Numbered from the stretch's first letter, positions 52,172 to 57,764 are shown. The stretch is 64,000 bases of DNA from Oscillospiraceae bacterium (GCA_015063605.1 SVTV01000008.1:5038-69037); one strand, 5' to 3'. Made by a program: numbers and translations. The notes: generated by a model from the letters alone, not told the origin.

Positions 52172-52336
52172 TTATTTTTGTGATTCTTTTCCGCTTTGCC
52201 TTTTCTTCATCCTCCGCCAGCTTACAAAGCCGTAAATGTCATTTACCAAAAAAGCGGCAAAGCATACTGTGATTGCCGTCACCGACAGCGTCCACAGGAT
52301 AATGTCAAGAGTAGAAAAATACTGTTTGATTTTCAT
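52172..52336 (-). CDS. 54-aa single-TM ORF (not in the supplied track), possibly a transporter C-terminal remnant
   Basis: My own translation is MKIKQYFSTLDIILWTLSVTAITVCFAAFLVNDIYGFVSWRRMKKRQSGKESQK. The tail NDIYGFVSWRR resembles PnuC-type C-termini from memory only. I found no convincing RBS. Confidence 0.25.
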   Translation of the reverse strand: MKIKQYFSTLDIILWTLSVTAITVCFAAFLVNDIYGFVSWRRMKKRQSGKESQK

Positions 52337-52558: not shown

Positions 52559-52700
52559 GTGTACTTTTTGACAGTTAATTTCCTTGTCTAATTATAACAC
52601 TAAAATATATAAAATGCAAGGCTTTTTTAGAAAAAAGTTAACAGAATATGAATTTACTTGTTATCTATTCCCTTGAAATGGCTTTTGTCAAAAAGTACAC
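52559..52700. repeat. 15-bp perfect inverted repeat pair flanking 112 bp, upstream of the SPFH/TIR operon
   Basis: GTGTACTTTTTGACA (52559-52573) and its exact reverse complement TGTCAAAAAGTACAC (52686-52700). Confidence 0.8.
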
Positions 52701-52739
52701 TTATTGAAAATAGTCATACCTGTAAGGAGAATATGTATC

Positions 52740-54149
52740 ATGTCGAAAATTGCCGATATAATCAAATACGAGGGCGATAACAGCACCTTTATATGGAAAC
52801 ATCCTTGTGAGGATTTCAACACATTGACACAGCTTATCGTTCATGAAAGTCAGGAAGCTGTATTCTTTCTCAATGGAGAAGCCCTTGATCTTTTCGGACC
52901 GGGAAGGCATACTCTCGAAACTCAAAACATACCAAAACTTGGAAAACTTTTCAATAAAATTATAGGAGATGATACGCCTTTTCATTGCGAAGTTTATTTT
53001 ATTAATAAAACCGTGCAAATGGCTATTAAATGGGGCACAGATTCAAAAGTGCGTTTCGTAGAACCTATTTACGGTATACCTTTGGAAATAGGCGCATGCG
53101 GTGAGATGAATTTAGAGGTTTCGGATTCACGTAAGTTATTATTGAAGCTTGTGGGTACAATGAACGGTATTGCATGGGACGATTATGGAGCAGGTTTTAC
53201 AAAATCCCTTCAAAATTCTTTTCGTCCTCTTATTTCTACTGCTGTAAAATCAAATCTTCCGAGTGCCATAAAATCCAATAACATAGATGTTATTGAAATT
53301 GATGAGAAACTAGAGTTGCTTTCGGAAACAATGCGAAGAAGCATTGTAAATGGCTTTGAGGAATACGGTCTTACAATACCTCAATTCTACATTACCGGTA
53401 TTGCCCTTCCCGAGAACGATCCTAATTTCAAAAAAATGAAGGAGTTACATGCCGTATCATTCCAGACGAGAATGATACAAGCGGAAGCTTTTGTTAAATC
53501 CGCACAAGCCGATGCCGATGCGGATGTTACGGCAGCAAGACGAAAGGTTGAGATGGAACGCCAGCTTACTGAAACAGAAGTGAAAAAACGTGAAGCCGAA
53601 CGTGAGTTGATCAAAGCGCAAACGGAAGCGCAAGCCGTAAAGATGGCAGGTCTTGCCGAAGCTGAAGTAATGCGGGCAAAGGGCTACGATCAGAAAGACG
53701 TTATTACAGCCGAGGTTCAAAAGGCATATGCGGAAGGTATTGGCAACATGACTATCAGCGGAAGCGGCGGCGGAGTTGCCGGTGATATGATAGGATTGAG
53801 TGTGGGAATGGCTGCCGCAGGCGTAGTTGCTCCCAAGCTCGGTGAAATGTTTGCCGGCTCAACCGGTGCAACACCGAATACATCTTCCGAAGCGCCCGCG
53901 GCGGAAGCCAAATGCTCAAAATGCGGTGCGGTATTGCCGAAAAATGCAAAATTCTGTCTTGAGTGCGGTGAAAAGGTCGCTCCCAAAATACCGGAAGGTA
54001 TGGTTATCTGCCCCGAATGCGGTAAAACAGTATCAAAGGGTAAATTCTGTCCCGAGTGCGGACACAAGTTTATAACAGCTTGCCCGAAATGCGGAAAAGA
54101 ACTTATTCCGGGTGCAAAATTCTGCCTTGAATGCGGCGAAAAGCTTTGA
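52740..54149 (+). CDS. SPFH-domain protein (YdjI/COG4260-like) with three C-terminal zinc ribbons
   Basis: The N-terminus MSKIADIIKYEGDNSTFIWKHP...LIVHESQEAVFFLNGE is typical of the SPFH Band_7_1 type. It has an Ala/Glu-rich coiled coil. Three CxxC...CxxC ribbons follow (CSKCG..CLECG, CPECG..CPECG, CPKCG..CLECG). The RBS AAGGAGA lies 9 nt upstream of ATG 52740. Confidence 0.8.
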   Translation: MSKIADIIKYEGDNSTFIWKHPCEDFNTLTQLIVHESQEAVFFLNGEALDLFGPGRHTLETQNIPKLGKLFNKIIGDDTPFHCEVYFINKTVQMAIKWGTDSKVRFVEPIYGIPLEIGACGEMNLEVSDSRKLLLKLVGTMNGIAWDDYGAGFTKSLQNSFRPLISTAVKSNLPSAIKSNNIDVIEIDEKLELLSETMRRSIVNGFEEYGLTIPQFYITGIALPENDPNFKKMKELHAVSFQTRMIQAEAFVKSAQADADADVTAARRKVEMERQLTETEVKKREAERELIKAQTEAQAVKMAGLAEAEVMRAKGYDQKDVITAEVQKAYAEGIGNMTISGSGGGVAGDMIGLSVGMAAAGVVAPKLGEMFAGSTGATPNTSSEAPAAEAKCSKCGAVLPKNAKFCLECGEKVAPKIPEGMVICPECGKTVSKGKFCPECGHKFITACPKCGKELIPGAKFCLECGEKL

Positions 54150-54165
54150 TCGGAGGTTGTGAAAA

Positions 54166-54864
54166 ATGACAAAGGTATTTAAAAACTATTTAATAATTTG
54201 GGTTGTTTTATTGATAATATTCAATGTTGTTTCCTTTGTGTCGGTCGGTTGGACGGGACAGGAAAAATACACACCGTCATTTTGGATAGGTTATGCATTT
54301 ATTACACTTACATTTATCGGTCAGATAGTATGTGCATATTTTGCGTTGAAAAACGTAGATATTAAGAAAACATTTTATAACATTCCCCTTTTTGAAACAA
54401 GTTGCAAGGGGGTCATTCTTACCTTTGTTGTCGGCGGTCTTTGTATGCTTATATCGCCTCTTCCGTATTGGATCGGAATAATAGGTTGCTCAATCATCCT
54501 GCTTTTCAATATAATCTCAGTTGTTAAAGCATTCGCTACTGTTGATATCGTAAGCGGGTTGGATTCGAAATTAAGAACGCAAACTTTTTTCACAAAATCA
54601 TTAACAATTGATGCAGATACACTTATGGCGAGTGCAAAATCCGACTCTGTCAAGACAGAATGCAGAAAAGTATATGAGGCTATTCGATATTCAGATCCCA
54701 TGAGCAATGGTGCTCTTGCATCGGTTGAAACCCAAATAACGCTGAAATTTGCCGAGCTTTCCGAAGCTGTTAAAGCGGATAATATAGAAGCGGTAACAAC
54801 ACTCGCAAACGAGGTTTGTATATTGGTCGCGGACAGAAATAAGAAATGTAAAATGTTGAAGTGA
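54166..54864 (+). CDS. 4-TM membrane protein with C-terminal helical cytoplasmic domain, unknown family
   Basis: Four hydrophobic helices fall in aa 8-125, followed by a soluble tail (...VYEAIRYSDPMSNGALASVETQI...). The RBS GGAGG lies 9 nt upstream, and the gene starts 16 nt after the SPFH stop. Confidence 0.6.
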   Translation: MTKVFKNYLIIWVVLLIIFNVVSFVSVGWTGQEKYTPSFWIGYAFITLTFIGQIVCAYFALKNVDIKKTFYNIPLFETSCKGVILTFVVGGLCMLISPLPYWIGIIGCSIILLFNIISVVKAFATVDIVSGLDSKLRTQTFFTKSLTIDADTLMASAKSDSVKTECRKVYEAIRYSDPMSNGALASVETQITLKFAELSEAVKADNIEAVTTLANEVCILVADRNKKCKMLK

Positions 54865-54874
54865 GATTTTTGTT

Positions 54875-57373
54875 ATGTCAATCCTTTTTAAATGTAAAAT
54901 GTGCAACGGTAACCTTGAAATAGCAGAAGGTATCACCGTTACGGAATGTGATTATTGCGGTACAAAGCAAACAGTACCGAAAGCTATTGATGAAAATTTG
55001 CAAAATCTTTTCAATAGAGCCAATACTCTGCGTATCAAGAGCGAATTTGACAAAGCGGAAGAGCTTTATGAAAAGATAGTACAAGCAGATACAACGCAAT
55101 CGGAAGCGTATTGGGGGCTTATCCTCTGCAAATACGGTATAGAATACGTGGATGATCCCGCAACATTCAAAAAGATCCCCACATGCCATAGGGCTTCATA
55201 TGAATCAATAATTGCCGATGATGATTACAAATCGGCACTTGAAAACGCCGATTTAAGTCAGCGTGCCGTTTATGAGGAACAAGCAAAGGAGATCGACAGA
55301 ATACAAAAGGAAATCCTTGCTCTTGCACAAAAAGAAGAAACTTACGATGTATTTATCTGCTACAAGGAGACGGATTCCGACGGTCACAGAACGCAGGACA
55401 GCGTAATTGCAAACGATATTTATTATCAGCTTACAAATGAAGGATTCAAAGTTTTCTATGCCGCAATAACTCTTGAAGGAAAGTTAGGTTCAGCTTATGA
55501 ACCTATCATCTTTGCTGCGCTCAATTCCGCAAAGGTAATGCTTTCCATTGGTACAAAGCCAGAATATTTCAACGCTGTTTGGGTCAAAAACGAATGGTCA
55601 AGATATTTGAAGATAATCAAGAATGACCGTTCAAAGCTTCTTATTCCGTGCTACCGCGATATGGATGCATATGAGCTTCCCGAAGAGTTTGCACATCTCC
55701 AAGCGCAGGATATGGCGAAGATAGGTTTTGTCAATGATATTATTCGCGGTATCAAAAAGGTAATTAAATCCGATGAACCGAAAGCAACAGTAATTAAGGA
55801 AACGGTTGTTTCCGAAAGCAATACCAACACCGCACCCCTTTTGAAGCGCGCCTTCATGTTCCTTGAAGACGGAGAGTTTGATAAGGCAGATGATTTCTGC
55901 GAGCAGGTCCTCAACCAAGACCCGGAATGTGCCGAGGCATATTTGGGTAAATTGATGGCAGAGCTGAATGTAAAAGCAAGAGAATCTCTTAAAAACTGCA
56001 GTGAGCCTTTTGACAGTAAAAACAATTATTCAAAGGCTATGCGCTTCGGAAATGAAGCCTTGAAAAAAGAGCTTGAAGCGTGCATTGAGCATATCAAAGC
56101 AAGAAACGAAAATAAGCGAATAGAAGGAATATACAACGCCGCAGTCAAAGCAATGAATTCCGCAAAAAGTATGTCAGATTATAGAAAAGCAATATCGTTA
56201 TTTTCTGAGATAGATTATAAGGATTCAAAGGACTTGAGAGAGAAATGTATTTCGGAGATGCAAGAATTTTCAATTAAAAAGAAAGAATTGTCAAAAATTA
56301 TTGAAAAAATCCAGATTAAAAATTCTCAAATAAGTATTTCTGCCGGAACGGATTTTTCAGTGGGGTTGTTATCCAATGGGAGAGTTGTCACGAACTTTGA
56401 TACAGGGCTGTATTCTCGCGAGCGCGACTTTTCGAAGTGGTCGCAAATAATTGCTATTTCCACGTATTATCATACTGTGGGATTGAGATTGGATGGAATG
56501 GTTGTTGCTCATGGTTTGAACTGCTACGGTGAATGTTACGTTATGGGATGGACAGATATTGTTTCTGTTTCTGCGGGCGAAAGACATACAGTTGGATTGA
56601 AATCAGATGGAACTGTTATTGCAACAAAATATCTTGATGGCAATGGTTATGGCTACGACGGTCAATGTGATGTTTCAGAGTGGTCGGATATTATTGCTGT
56701 TTCTGCAGGGAGTCATCACACGGTAGGTTTGATTTATAACGGAAGAGTAATAGCTGTTGGTGGGAATAATTTTAGACAATGTAATGTTTTGAGATGGTCG
56801 GATATTATGGCTGTATCTGCTGGTAGCTATCACACCGTAGGATTAAAAACCGATGGAACGGTTGTTGCTGTTGGTAGAAACGAAAACGGTCAATGTAATG
56901 TTAACGGATGGTCGGATATTATTGCTGTATCTGCAGGAGGAAATCATACCGTAGGATTGAAAGCCGATGGAACGGTTGTTGCCGTTGGAGGGAACGAATG
57001 CGAGCAATGCGAAGTGAGCGAGTGGGCTAATATTGTTGCTGTATCTGCAGGAGGAGGTCATACCGTAGGGTTGAAATCTGATGGTACGGTTATTGCTGTT
57101 GGTAGAAACGAAAGGAGGCAATGCGAAGTGAGCGAGTGGGCTAATATTGCGCTTCCGATTAAAGCAGAAACAAGAGCTGAATATATATCCATGAGATATG
57201 AAATCATGAAACGGAGCCTGCAAAAGCAACAAAGAATGCAAGAGCAGCAAAGAATGCAAGAGCAGCAAAGAATGCAGTATAGAAACGCAGGCGTGTGTCA
57301 GTATTGTGGCGGTAGGTTTAAAGGCATGTTTTCTAAAATTTGTGTAAAATGCGGCAAAAAGAAAGATTATTAA
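54875..57373 (+). CDS. multidomain protein: N-terminal zinc ribbon, TPR-like helices, TIR-like domain, TPR-like linker, seven RCC1-like beta-propeller blades, Q-rich repeat, C-terminal zinc ribbon
   Basis: The N-terminal ribbon is CKMC..CDYC (aa 7-28). The TIR-like core is YDVFICYKETD...AVWVKNEWSRY (aa ~156-295; nt ~55340-55759). Seven repeats of (W)SDI(I)AVSAG..HTVGLK.DGTV.AVG span aa ~487-758. QQRMQE occurs 3 times. The final ribbon is CQYC..CVKC. Confidence 0.75.
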   Translation: MSILFKCKMCNGNLEIAEGITVTECDYCGTKQTVPKAIDENLQNLFNRANTLRIKSEFDKAEELYEKIVQADTTQSEAYWGLILCKYGIEYVDDPATFKKIPTCHRASYESIIADDDYKSALENADLSQRAVYEEQAKEIDRIQKEILALAQKEETYDVFICYKETDSDGHRTQDSVIANDIYYQLTNEGFKVFYAAITLEGKLGSAYEPIIFAALNSAKVMLSIGTKPEYFNAVWVKNEWSRYLKIIKNDRSKLLIPCYRDMDAYELPEEFAHLQAQDMAKIGFVNDIIRGIKKVIKSDEPKATVIKETVVSESNTNTAPLLKRAFMFLEDGEFDKADDFCEQVLNQDPECAEAYLGKLMAELNVKARESLKNCSEPFDSKNNYSKAMRFGNEALKKELEACIEHIKARNENKRIEGIYNAAVKAMNSAKSMSDYRKAISLFSEIDYKDSKDLREKCISEMQEFSIKKKELSKIIEKIQIKNSQISISAGTDFSVGLLSNGRVVTNFDTGLYSRERDFSKWSQIIAISTYYHTVGLRLDGMVVAHGLNCYGECYVMGWTDIVSVSAGERHTVGLKSDGTVIATKYLDGNGYGYDGQCDVSEWSDIIAVSAGSHHTVGLIYNGRVIAVGGNNFRQCNVLRWSDIMAVSAGSYHTVGLKTDGTVVAVGRNENGQCNVNGWSDIIAVSAGGNHTVGLKADGTVVAVGGNECEQCEVSEWANIVAVSAGGGHTVGLKSDGTVIAVGRNERRQCEVSEWANIALPIKAETRAEYISMRYEIMKRSLQKQQRMQEQQRMQEQQRMQYRNAGVCQYCGGRFKGMFSKICVKCGKKKDY

Positions 57374-57396
57374 TAATTTACATAGTTTAACAACGC

Positions 57397-57447
57397 AAAA
57401 GACTTGTACCAGATAACTCAACTGAAAAGTACAAGTCTTTTCTTTTA
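57397..57447 (+). terminator. rho-independent terminator after the TIR/RCC1 gene
   Basis: AAAAGACTTGTAC...GTACAAGTCTTTT stem followed by a TCTTTT run. Confidence 0.85.
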
Positions 57448-57577
57448 TTCAAATATTATAAAACCTTTTTTACATATTCATTTCAATATATCGGACAAGT
57501 CATCCAAATCAACTGTAGGCAGTTTAATGGAATCGCTTTCAATGAACATAAGCATATAAACAGGATTTGCTGCGATT

Positions 57578-57735: not shown

Positions 57736-57764
57736 TTGACACGCATCGTAAAATGTTATATAAT
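57736..57764 (+). promoter_or_regulatory. consensus sigma-A promoter for the glutamine synthetase gene
   Basis: TTGACA, 17 nt spacer, TATAAT. Confidence 0.6.

Follow-up and report, generated by a model that had tools for sequence, protein, structure and literature searches.

TIR domains are a common element of immunity, used by bacteria, plants and animals alike. In the bacterial TIR systems described so far, to our knowledge, the domain is joined to soluble sensors or to signal-activated effectors. As for SPFH (flotillin/stomatin-type) proteins, the B. subtilis protein YdjI is encoded together with two partners, one of them a Zn-ribbon protein and the other a membrane protein (PMC11237479, PMC8581546), and Band-7 domains have been proposed as superstructure-forming parts of vWA-MoxR conflict systems, which are the nearest precedent for the locus considered here (Kaur et al. 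2020, PMC7159879). This locus is a block of three genes in a 64,000-nt stretch of DNA from an Oscillospiraceae bacterium (GCA_015063605.1 SVTV01000008.1:5038-69037; the whole stretch is hereafter called the window), in which an earlier note had seen a candidate defence or conflict system. The block encodes an SPFH protein ending in Zn ribbons (gene 1), a four-transmembrane (4TM) protein (gene 2) and a multidomain TIR protein (gene 3), and it is one copy of a conserved, widespread, horizontally spread and unnamed triad of gut Clostridia. Its most likely role is that of a membrane-scaffolded TIR conflict or defence module, a reading to which a probability of about 0.45 is given.

A recurrent triad of gut Clostridia

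The distribution of the genes was surveyed in 401 genomes of the host's order, the same set being used for each query. Co-occurrence of the three genes elsewhere had been set beforehand as a refutation test for the proposed system, and a recurrent triad was found. Matches to gene 2 are present in 45 of the 401 genomes (29 of 177 genera), the ribbon-TPR-TIR module of gene 3 in 37, and both together in 29, where about 4 would be expected if they were independent; this roughly sevenfold excess is descriptive, relatives not being independent. By their coordinates, 40 of the 41 gene 2 matches with E <=1e-10 lie directly 3' of a match to the SPFH-ribbon protein on the same strand, and for 25 of the 41 a gene with the TIR module stands no more than about 5 kb from the pair, mostly immediately behind gene 2, which is also its place in the window. 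When GTDB species representatives were scanned independently with an alignment of the TIR module, at least 368 loci were obtained; of the 32 best loci that span 15 kb or more, 27 have an SPFH gene within 9 kb and 23 have a gene 2 homologue. In all 38 GTDB loci having both, the SPFH and 4TM genes are adjacent, with a median gap of 13 nt, and the arrangements seen most often are SPFH-4TM-TIR (11 loci) and SPFH-4TM-x-TIR (10 loci). The same triad pattern is found in metagenomic contigs. The distribution is patchy and takes in Oscillospiraceae, Acutalibacteraceae, Ruminococcus, Lachnospiraceae, Anaerovoracaceae, Erysipelotrichaceae and others. Homologues of gene 1 with 60-82% identity occur elsewhere in the same gene order.

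Gene 3 is tied to genes 1 and 2 by its N-terminal Zn-ribbon-TPR module. In about 36 of the 41 SPFH-4TM pairs the neighbouring gene begins with this module, which is followed by a TIR domain in 25 and by other payloads in 11; where the pairs are TIR-less, the adjacent gene starts with the same N-terminal Zn ribbon and TPR in 11 of 17 cases. Since the module also heads non-TIR neighbours, the triad is to be defined as an SPFH-ribbon protein, a 4TM protein and a ribbon-TPR client. TIR is the commonest client payload, whereas the TIR-less clients carry BspA-type leucine-rich repeats (LRRs; LRR_5), DUF6591, the C-terminal domain of ribosomal protein L12 or nothing recognisable, and further clusters contain ribbon-Trypsin_2 and ribbon-DUF6273 proteins. 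A pair with TIR clients has one to four TIR paralogues, often two to four, which differ in their C-termini; BLAST clustering of the C-terminal domains put them all into one single-linkage cluster and was uninformative. The RCC1/TPR sensor coupled to a TIR domain, as originally proposed, is present in the window as a set of domains, but its RCC1 part is not a conserved feature (21 of 95 TIR paralogues), and the conserved link is the N-terminal ribbon-TPR module. As a separate observation, the ribosomal protein L7/L12 C-terminal domain (4.8e-14), an odd payload in that it normally binds translational GTPases, stands on the Zn-ribbon-TPR module at L021:6204-8186 (+) and also in P0020.

A single strongly hydrophobic helix, at about residues 480-610, separates the cytosolic module from the variable domain in 178 of 215 family members. 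The positive-inside rule is obeyed by 171 of 171 single-helix members (Lys+Arg 7.9 before the helix vs 2.1 after it), and this charge bias places the TIR side in the cytoplasm and the variable domain outside the cell. The ectodomains are BspA-type LRRs, Listeria-Bacteroides repeats (Flg_new), DUF6273 or RCC1, often following extracellular TPRs. The protein of the window is among the 37 members without the helix, a soluble minority form. A C-terminal Zn ribbon is found in 15 of these 37, that of the window included, and in 0 of the 178 members with a membrane helix, so that tail and helix are mutually exclusive. The picture of an NLR-like cytosolic sensor consequently does not hold for the family, although the copy of the window is soluble.

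Natural fusions support a link of gene 2 with gene 3-type cassettes. One of them, located directly after a Band_7_1-ribbon gene, consists of the 4TM module, a fifth helix, TPRs and an RCC1 domain that shares 56-58% identity with that of gene 3; others join the 4TM module to Trypsin_2 or to an additional C-terminal part without a Pfam match. The 4TM module is also seen fused to Ser/Thr protein kinases (P0189, P0235, P0244). The kinase fusion of P0235 belongs to a WXG100/EssC type VII secretion locus, where it lies beside a PP2C phosphatase and a small Zn-ribbon protein and where no SPFH gene is present.

The three proteins and their setting in the window

The domain content that the earlier note had read in the three proteins was recovered by Pfam and by structural models. 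Gene 1 carries a Band_7_1 domain (PF13421) at residues 30-226 (122.8 bits vs a cut-off of 24, E 2e-35; Pfam), an Ala/Glu-rich coiled linker in the middle and three C-terminal Zn ribbons, the cysteines of which are at least 90% conserved in alignment A3. No hydrophobic (membrane) helix was found in it by hydropathy, and the protein is soluble. A variant SPFH protein of 517-622 residues with an additional N-terminal Zn ribbon (L013:4646-6463, L043:9862-11604, L046:5086-6954, L048:6662-8215) marks a second, more divergent class of the triad (25-50% identity), which includes one common gut species (P0088, 213 collection blocks).

In the AlphaFold2 (AF2) model of gene 2 (confidence score, pLDDT, 86), four hydrophobic membrane helices are predicted, the fourth of which extends into a cytosolic four-helix bundle. 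Two motifs, R-[YF]-S-D-P-x-S and a C-terminal ERNxKCKLLK, are near-invariant in the alignment. The protein has no match in Pfam, PADLOC or NCBIfam, and neither a TPM nor an NfeD domain was detected in it by Pfam. Moreover, its fold retrieves nothing from the PDB with Foldseek, only uncharacterised relatives from the AlphaFold DB and only 'hypothetical' clusters from the ESM Atlas. Gene 2 belongs to a large unannotated family, a profile search of 1.84 billion representatives having returned 5228 clusters at 50% identity.

The AF2 model of gene 3 covers residues 1-480 (pLDDT 91), and the RCC1 propeller was assigned from the sequence, on seven stretches matching RCC1_2 (1.2e-45; Pfam). The modelled part consists of the ribbon, TPR, TIR and helical repeats only, a disordered linker separating the TIR domain from the all-helical region; no NTPase domain was found by Pfam, and no hydrophobic helix is present (maximum 19-residue hydropathy 1.15). 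In the N-terminal ribbon, an alignment of 41 diverse family members shows no variation at C10, C25 and C28. TIR_2 is matched with 37.7 bits vs a cut-off of 28 (Pfam), and the modelled TIR domain is most similar by Foldseek, with probability 1.0, to NAD-cleaving TIRs: AbTir (7uxu; TM-score 0.78, root-mean-square deviation 3.1), followed by the SARM1 TIR domain (TM-score 0.70-0.73), BtTir and plant TIRs. A sequence search of the PDB with the TIR segment gave no match, and the profile search of the PDB gave designed TPR proteins only. In the same 41 sequences, which include paralogues of 33% identity, V235, W236, V237, N239, E240 and W241 are invariant. The Glu of this VWVxNEW motif we take to stand in the WxxxE register of the catalytic Glu of SARM1 and of bacterial TIR NADases, E240 being presumably equivalent to SARM1 E642, judged by the motif rather than by structural superposition. 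From motif and model, the TIR domain of gene 3 is predicted to be of the NAD-cleaving type and enzymatically competent.

The three co-oriented genes, separated by gaps of 16 and 10 nt as first noted, form one operon with its own promoter-like site, ribosome-binding site and strong terminator (Table 1). The terminator, which also agrees with the earlier note, starts 23 nt past the last stop codon and folds with a free energy of -15.6 kcal/mol (z -3.95; 0 of 200 shuffles fold equally well); it was not picked up by the consensus scan because its loop is long. Rfam gave no match between 51900 and 58000.

Table 1. Coordinates of the features of the three-gene operon, counted from the first nucleotide of the window.
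Feature	Position	Strand	Evidence
Promoter-like site TTGACA, 16 nt, AATTAT	52568-52595	+	Consensus scan, 10/12 matches; pattern match only
Ribosome-binding site AAGGAG, 10 nt 5' of the gene 1 ATG	52724-52729	+	Read from the sequence
Gene 1, SPFH-ribbon protein, 469 aa	52740-54149	+	Pfam
Three C-terminal CxxC..CxxC Zn ribbons of gene 1 (aa 389-469)	53904-54146	+	Pfam DZR, Zn_Ribbon_1, Zn_ribbon_3
Gene 2, 4TM protein, 232 aa	54166-54864	+	AF2 model, alignment
Gene 3, multidomain TIR protein, 832 aa	54875-57373	+	Pfam, AF2 model, hydropathy
N-terminal module of gene 3: four-stranded Zn ribbon (aa 3-33), TPR helices, beta hairpin, long helix to about aa 150	54881-55324	+	AF2 model
TIR domain (aa 155-300)	55337-55774	+	Pfam TIR_2, AF2, Foldseek
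Codon of the candidate catalytic Glu240	55592-55594	+	Invariant motif V-W-V-x-N-E-W
All-helical TPR-like region (aa 320-480)	55832-56314	+	AF2 pLDDT 95-98; Pfam TPR_19
Seven-bladed RCC1-like beta propeller (about aa 490-765), cytosolic in this protein	56342-57169	+	Pfam RCC1_2; no membrane helix ahead
C-terminal CxxC..CxxC Zn ribbon, past a Gln-rich repeat linker	57296-57352	+	Read from the translation
Intrinsic terminator: 13-bp stem (57397-57441) and U tract	57397-57449	+	RNA fold

The block had been described as AT-rich, with a long AT-rich region upstream. Its G+C content is indeed below the genome mean (40.9% vs 43.2%), as is that of the third codon positions of the three genes (0.35-0.38 vs 0.47; 4th-7th percentile), but the shift is mild, at the 13th percentile among equal-sized windows, and the signal of an island is weak. 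Gene 1 is not AT-rich overall, because the Ala/Gly/Glu-rich linker between its SPFH domain and its Zn ribbons forms a local G+C peak (0.526 at 53500-54000). The intergenic regions have 33% and 29% G+C. The 715-nt upstream stretch is not empty: an open reading frame of 54 codons at 52172-52336 (-) weakly matches the last 34 positions of the profile of the PnuC/nicotinamide mononucleotide transporter (E 3.7e-4, 20.9 bits, under the cut-off of 27.3). By this match, it seems to be what is left of an NAD-precursor transporter gene, immediately 5' of a putative-NADase operon. A pnuC gene split by insertion of the block was considered as the origin of this remnant and rejected, only a C-terminal remnant lying upstream and no N-terminal half downstream.

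The setting between sugar-metabolism genes and glnN is as had been read. To the left, on the other strand, there are a GFO_IDH_MocA oxidoreductase gene and a gene for a xylose-isomerase-like TIM-barrel protein; to the right, a type III glutamine synthetase gene with its own perfect promoter match is followed by RadC, NrdG-like and NrdD genes. Perfect TTGACA, 17 nt, TATAAT promoters lie on both sides of the block, at 57736-57764 (+) for glnN and at 52110-52082 (-) for the divergent sugar-metabolism genes. The host genome (2.67 Mb, 43.2% G+C, 96% complete) contains the sporulation gene YqfD and hence belongs to a spore-forming Clostridium-type organism. One further genome of the genus was searched; gene 2 was not found in it, and the genes matching the flanks of the block lie on different contigs there. 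The sequencing runs that contain the block are animal faecal DNA metagenomes only. Contigs from four runs give identical short pieces over the block and its flanks, at about 4x depth, and none joins the flanks without the block. In faecal-metagenome contigs (runs X1-X4), position 57374, at the end of a gene 3-like gene, is joined via 23-25 other letters to 54885-54887, at the start of a second gene 3-like gene, which indicates tandem TIR paralogues in related organisms from the same samples.

Defence context and rival readings

A function in defence is plausible on contextual evidence. The small extra gene often found between the 4TM and TIR genes encodes a stand-alone TIR, HEPN, DUF4365 or DUF2971 protein, and SIR2_2-type genes occur at the edge of the cluster. 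Enrichment near defence genes, which the earlier note had proposed for examination, was seen in a small test: among 46 genes flanking triads, strong PADLOC matches were obtained to PDC-S01 (2e-161), RT_UG29 (3e-54), SoFic (1e-37) and pAgo (2e-24), and also to PDC-S48 and dGTPase, whereas 0 of 46 other genes of the window reached 1e-20, giving weak generic matches only. The same 46 genes include integrases, a relaxase and a type IV secretion system gene, and other copies of the triad adjoin a prophage or a Fic/VbhA pair. As side observations, the flanks also contain two bAvd-like and two 23S_rRNA_IVP four-helix-bundle genes which, together with the RT_UG29 reverse transcriptase, resemble accessories of diversity-generating retroelements. 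Some triad clusters encode accessory proteins of 310-404 residues (L029:83-1267 (-), L048:5455-6669 (+), L042:10631-11563 (+)), two of which begin with FLFG[SA]GA and one of which matches SIR2_2 (31 bits); another comes nearest, by its language-model features, to SIR2-like and AbiH clusters (0.93-0.96), which is no more than a lead. Neither gene 2 nor the N-terminal module of gene 3 has a homologue in 50,697 deposited phage genomes, a result that excludes a phage-borne origin among those records and is neutral on defence.

On this basis, the favoured reading can be put as a mechanism, of which NADase output, phage or another invader as the trigger, docking and clustering are steps that we infer. 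The soluble Band_7_1 SPFH protein would owe its place at the membrane to the product of the next gene, the 4TM/four-helix-bundle protein, and would build an oligomeric sub-membrane platform, like other SPFH proteins. Clients could dock on this platform via their common Zn-ribbon-TPR module. The commonest client would combine a TIR domain with a variable repeat sensor, presumably the cytosolic RCC1 propeller in the window and, in most relatives, an LRR, DUF6273 or RCC1 domain that a single membrane helix places outside the cell. A trigger acting on the sensor or on the scaffold itself may then make the TIR domains cluster and cleave NAD+, and the loss of NAD+ would arrest the cell in an abortive-infection or conflict response. 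A complex prediction with gene 1, gene 2 and residues 1-150 of gene 3 scored 0.01, with no verdict by the tool, and weighs neither way. In a bolder form, which we hold only tentatively and regard as clearly less probable, these proteins, whether with an extracellular LRR, RCC1 or DUF6273 sensor or soluble as in the window, would be a large family of counterparts of Toll-like receptors in gut Clostridia, assembled on the scaffold by their Zn-ribbon-TPR module, sensing phage or another threat at the surface and bringing about NAD+ collapse through SPFH-scaffolded catalytic TIR domains, with the SPFH-4TM pair as a general hub for interchangeable clients.

Several points weigh against a defence module. 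No PADLOC model is matched by any of the three proteins, and the defence-island test was small, with 46 genes and a control taken from one other region. The copy of the window lies amid housekeeping genes and differs only mildly from the genome in composition. Moreover, the SPFH-4TM pair is also found with enzyme-less clients and the 4TM module also in kinase fusions, so that the core could be a general signalling or scaffolding device. Lastly, the sequence alone cannot tell NAD+ depletion from the production of a signal by the TIR domain.

One alternative is Thoeris-like signalling, in which the TIR proteins sense and make an ADP-ribose-derived signal and the SPFH-4TM pair is the effector that disrupts the membrane. 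Several divergent TIR paralogues around one SPFH-4TM pair recall several thsB genes around one thsA, and the nearest solved TIR structure is that of AbTir, which makes cyclic ADP-ribose isomers. Membrane-spanning Thoeris effectors are known as well (bioRxiv 10.64898/2025.12.03.692087), and there is a faint NCBIfam match to ThcB4; this match, at 21 bits vs a cut-off of 220, is however far below the cut-off, and NCBIfam returned nothing significant for the three proteins. Genes 1 and 2 have no recognisable signal-binding domain (SLOG, Macro, SAVED, STING or CARF), and the same pair serves TIR-less Zn-ribbon clients, so that a TIR-made signal cannot be the general link. SPFH, Band_7 and RCC1 are, in addition, absent from the text and supplements of the systematic Thoeris survey. 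This alternative is judged improbable. A mere chance neighbourhood, or a linkage of genes 1 and 2 alone with gene 3 as an independent TIR protein, is strongly disfavoured: close homologues of gene 3 do stand alone in some cases, with no SPFH gene nearby (L012; 5 of the 32 long loci), but the same order and spacing recur in many genera among proteins only 45-80% identical, the genome-level co-occurrence exceeds expectation, and a fusion joins the 4TM module to a gene 3-type ectodomain.

A stronger competitor, though in our estimate still unlikely, is a non-immune device for membrane signalling or envelope surveillance akin to ydjGHI, in which the SPFH protein and its anchor organise Zn-ribbon clients, and TIR domains, kinases and proteases are outputs for envelope or extracellular cues. 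Gene 1 is of YdjI's Pfam family, and the gene of YdjI, too, has partner genes for a Zn-ribbon and a membrane protein (PMC11237479, PMC8581546). Some clients lack any effector-type domain, 4TM-Ser/Thr kinase fusions stand beside a PP2C phosphatase, the repeats that most clients display outside the cell are of surface type (LRR_5, Flg_new, RCC1, DUF6273), and the neighbours of the present copy are housekeeping genes. However, PspA (PF04012) was not found in the 96%-complete host genome, while 9 control genomes were positive, nor is it among the top families in the flanks of triads elsewhere; the stress-operon reading of pspA-ydjGHI is therefore not directly transferable. The gene set is accessory and patchy, not core, and it is not tied to a core envelope-stress operon, a tie that the earlier note had named as a refuting condition. 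The arrays of paralogues and the presence of HEPN, SIR2, DUF4365 and stand-alone TIR genes are typical of conflict systems, and the invariant catalytic Glu points to an NAD-consuming enzyme, not to an adaptor.

If the membrane-scaffolded TIR module is defensive, it would be the first case in which a bacterial SPFH microdomain serves immunity, and it would exemplify the sensing of threats by a TIR receptor at the cell surface. Two large unannotated families would moreover gain a function, that of gene 2 (more than 5000 clusters at 50% identity) and that of the Zn-ribbon-TPR-TIR proteins (more than 8000 proteins); both are abundant in Clostridia of the human and animal gut. If the module is not defensive, it would still be a modular membrane signalling hub with TIR, kinase and protease outputs.

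Comparison with known systems

Among the closest known systems, on the SPFH side, is the envelope-stress operon of B. subtilis. Gene 1 shares with YdjI its Pfam family, a C-terminal Zn ribbon and the lack of a membrane helix of its own and, as in pspA-ydjGHI, the SPFH gene stands beside the genes of a membrane protein and of a protein with N-terminal Zn ribbons. Unlike in that operon, no PspA was found, the membrane partner is a novel 4TM/four-helix-bundle protein instead of the TPM-domain protein YdjH, the Zn-ribbon partner carries a TIR domain, and the set is accessory and often has multiple paralogues. The tight pairing of an SPFH gene with a dedicated membrane-protein gene is also known from SPFH-NfeD operons, but no NfeD domain was detected in gene 2 by Pfam and, unlike in the vWA-MoxR systems, there is no vWA protein or MoxR ATPase.

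On the TIR side, Thoeris (ThsB TIR sensors with a ThsA-type effector; types I-XI) likewise has TIR proteins with variable sensors, often several per locus, around one constant partner, and a patchy distribution. The present locus differs in that none of the known effectors (SIR2-SLOG, Macro-TM, SLOG, caspase-like, ThsF-L) accompanies it, and in that the constant partner is an SPFH scaffold pair which also serves non-TIR clients. From CBASS, Pycsar and short pAgo systems it is set apart by the lack of an adjacent cyclase or Argonaute: in the operon and its immediate flanks, Pfam and PADLOC revealed no ThsA, other known Thoeris effector, cyclase or Argonaute, in agreement with the initial view that the block matches no named system. 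With SARM1, AbTir/BtTir, TIR-STING, TIR-Avs and plant TNLs it has in common the TIR fold, the Glu in the WxxxE register and a repeat-type sensor in the same polypeptide. In contrast to these effectors, it has no STAND NTPase, STING, SAM or ARM module, but a Zn-ribbon-TPR module at the N-terminus of gene 3 and the SPFH-4TM pair as a dedicated partner; in the same way, gene 3 differs from the STAND/NLR-like proteins (Avs) in having neither a NACHT nor an NB-ARC NTPase.

No paper was found linking SPFH or Band_7_1 with TIR or with anti-phage defence. What is striking in this TIR-based system is a partner set not described in the literature searched, together with a receptor-like topology of the family: the TIR domain is tied to an SPFH membrane scaffold and, in most members, to an extracellular domain. 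In this respect, most relatives of gene 3 resemble the animal Toll-like receptors, in that they combine an ectodomain made of repeats (BspA-type LRR, RCC1, DUF6273) with a single membrane helix and a TIR domain in the cytosol. They differ from them in the reversed polarity of the family, the TIR domain being N-terminal, and in the retention of the catalytic Glu, and the protein of the window is without a membrane helix; the resemblance does not imply a common origin of the architecture.

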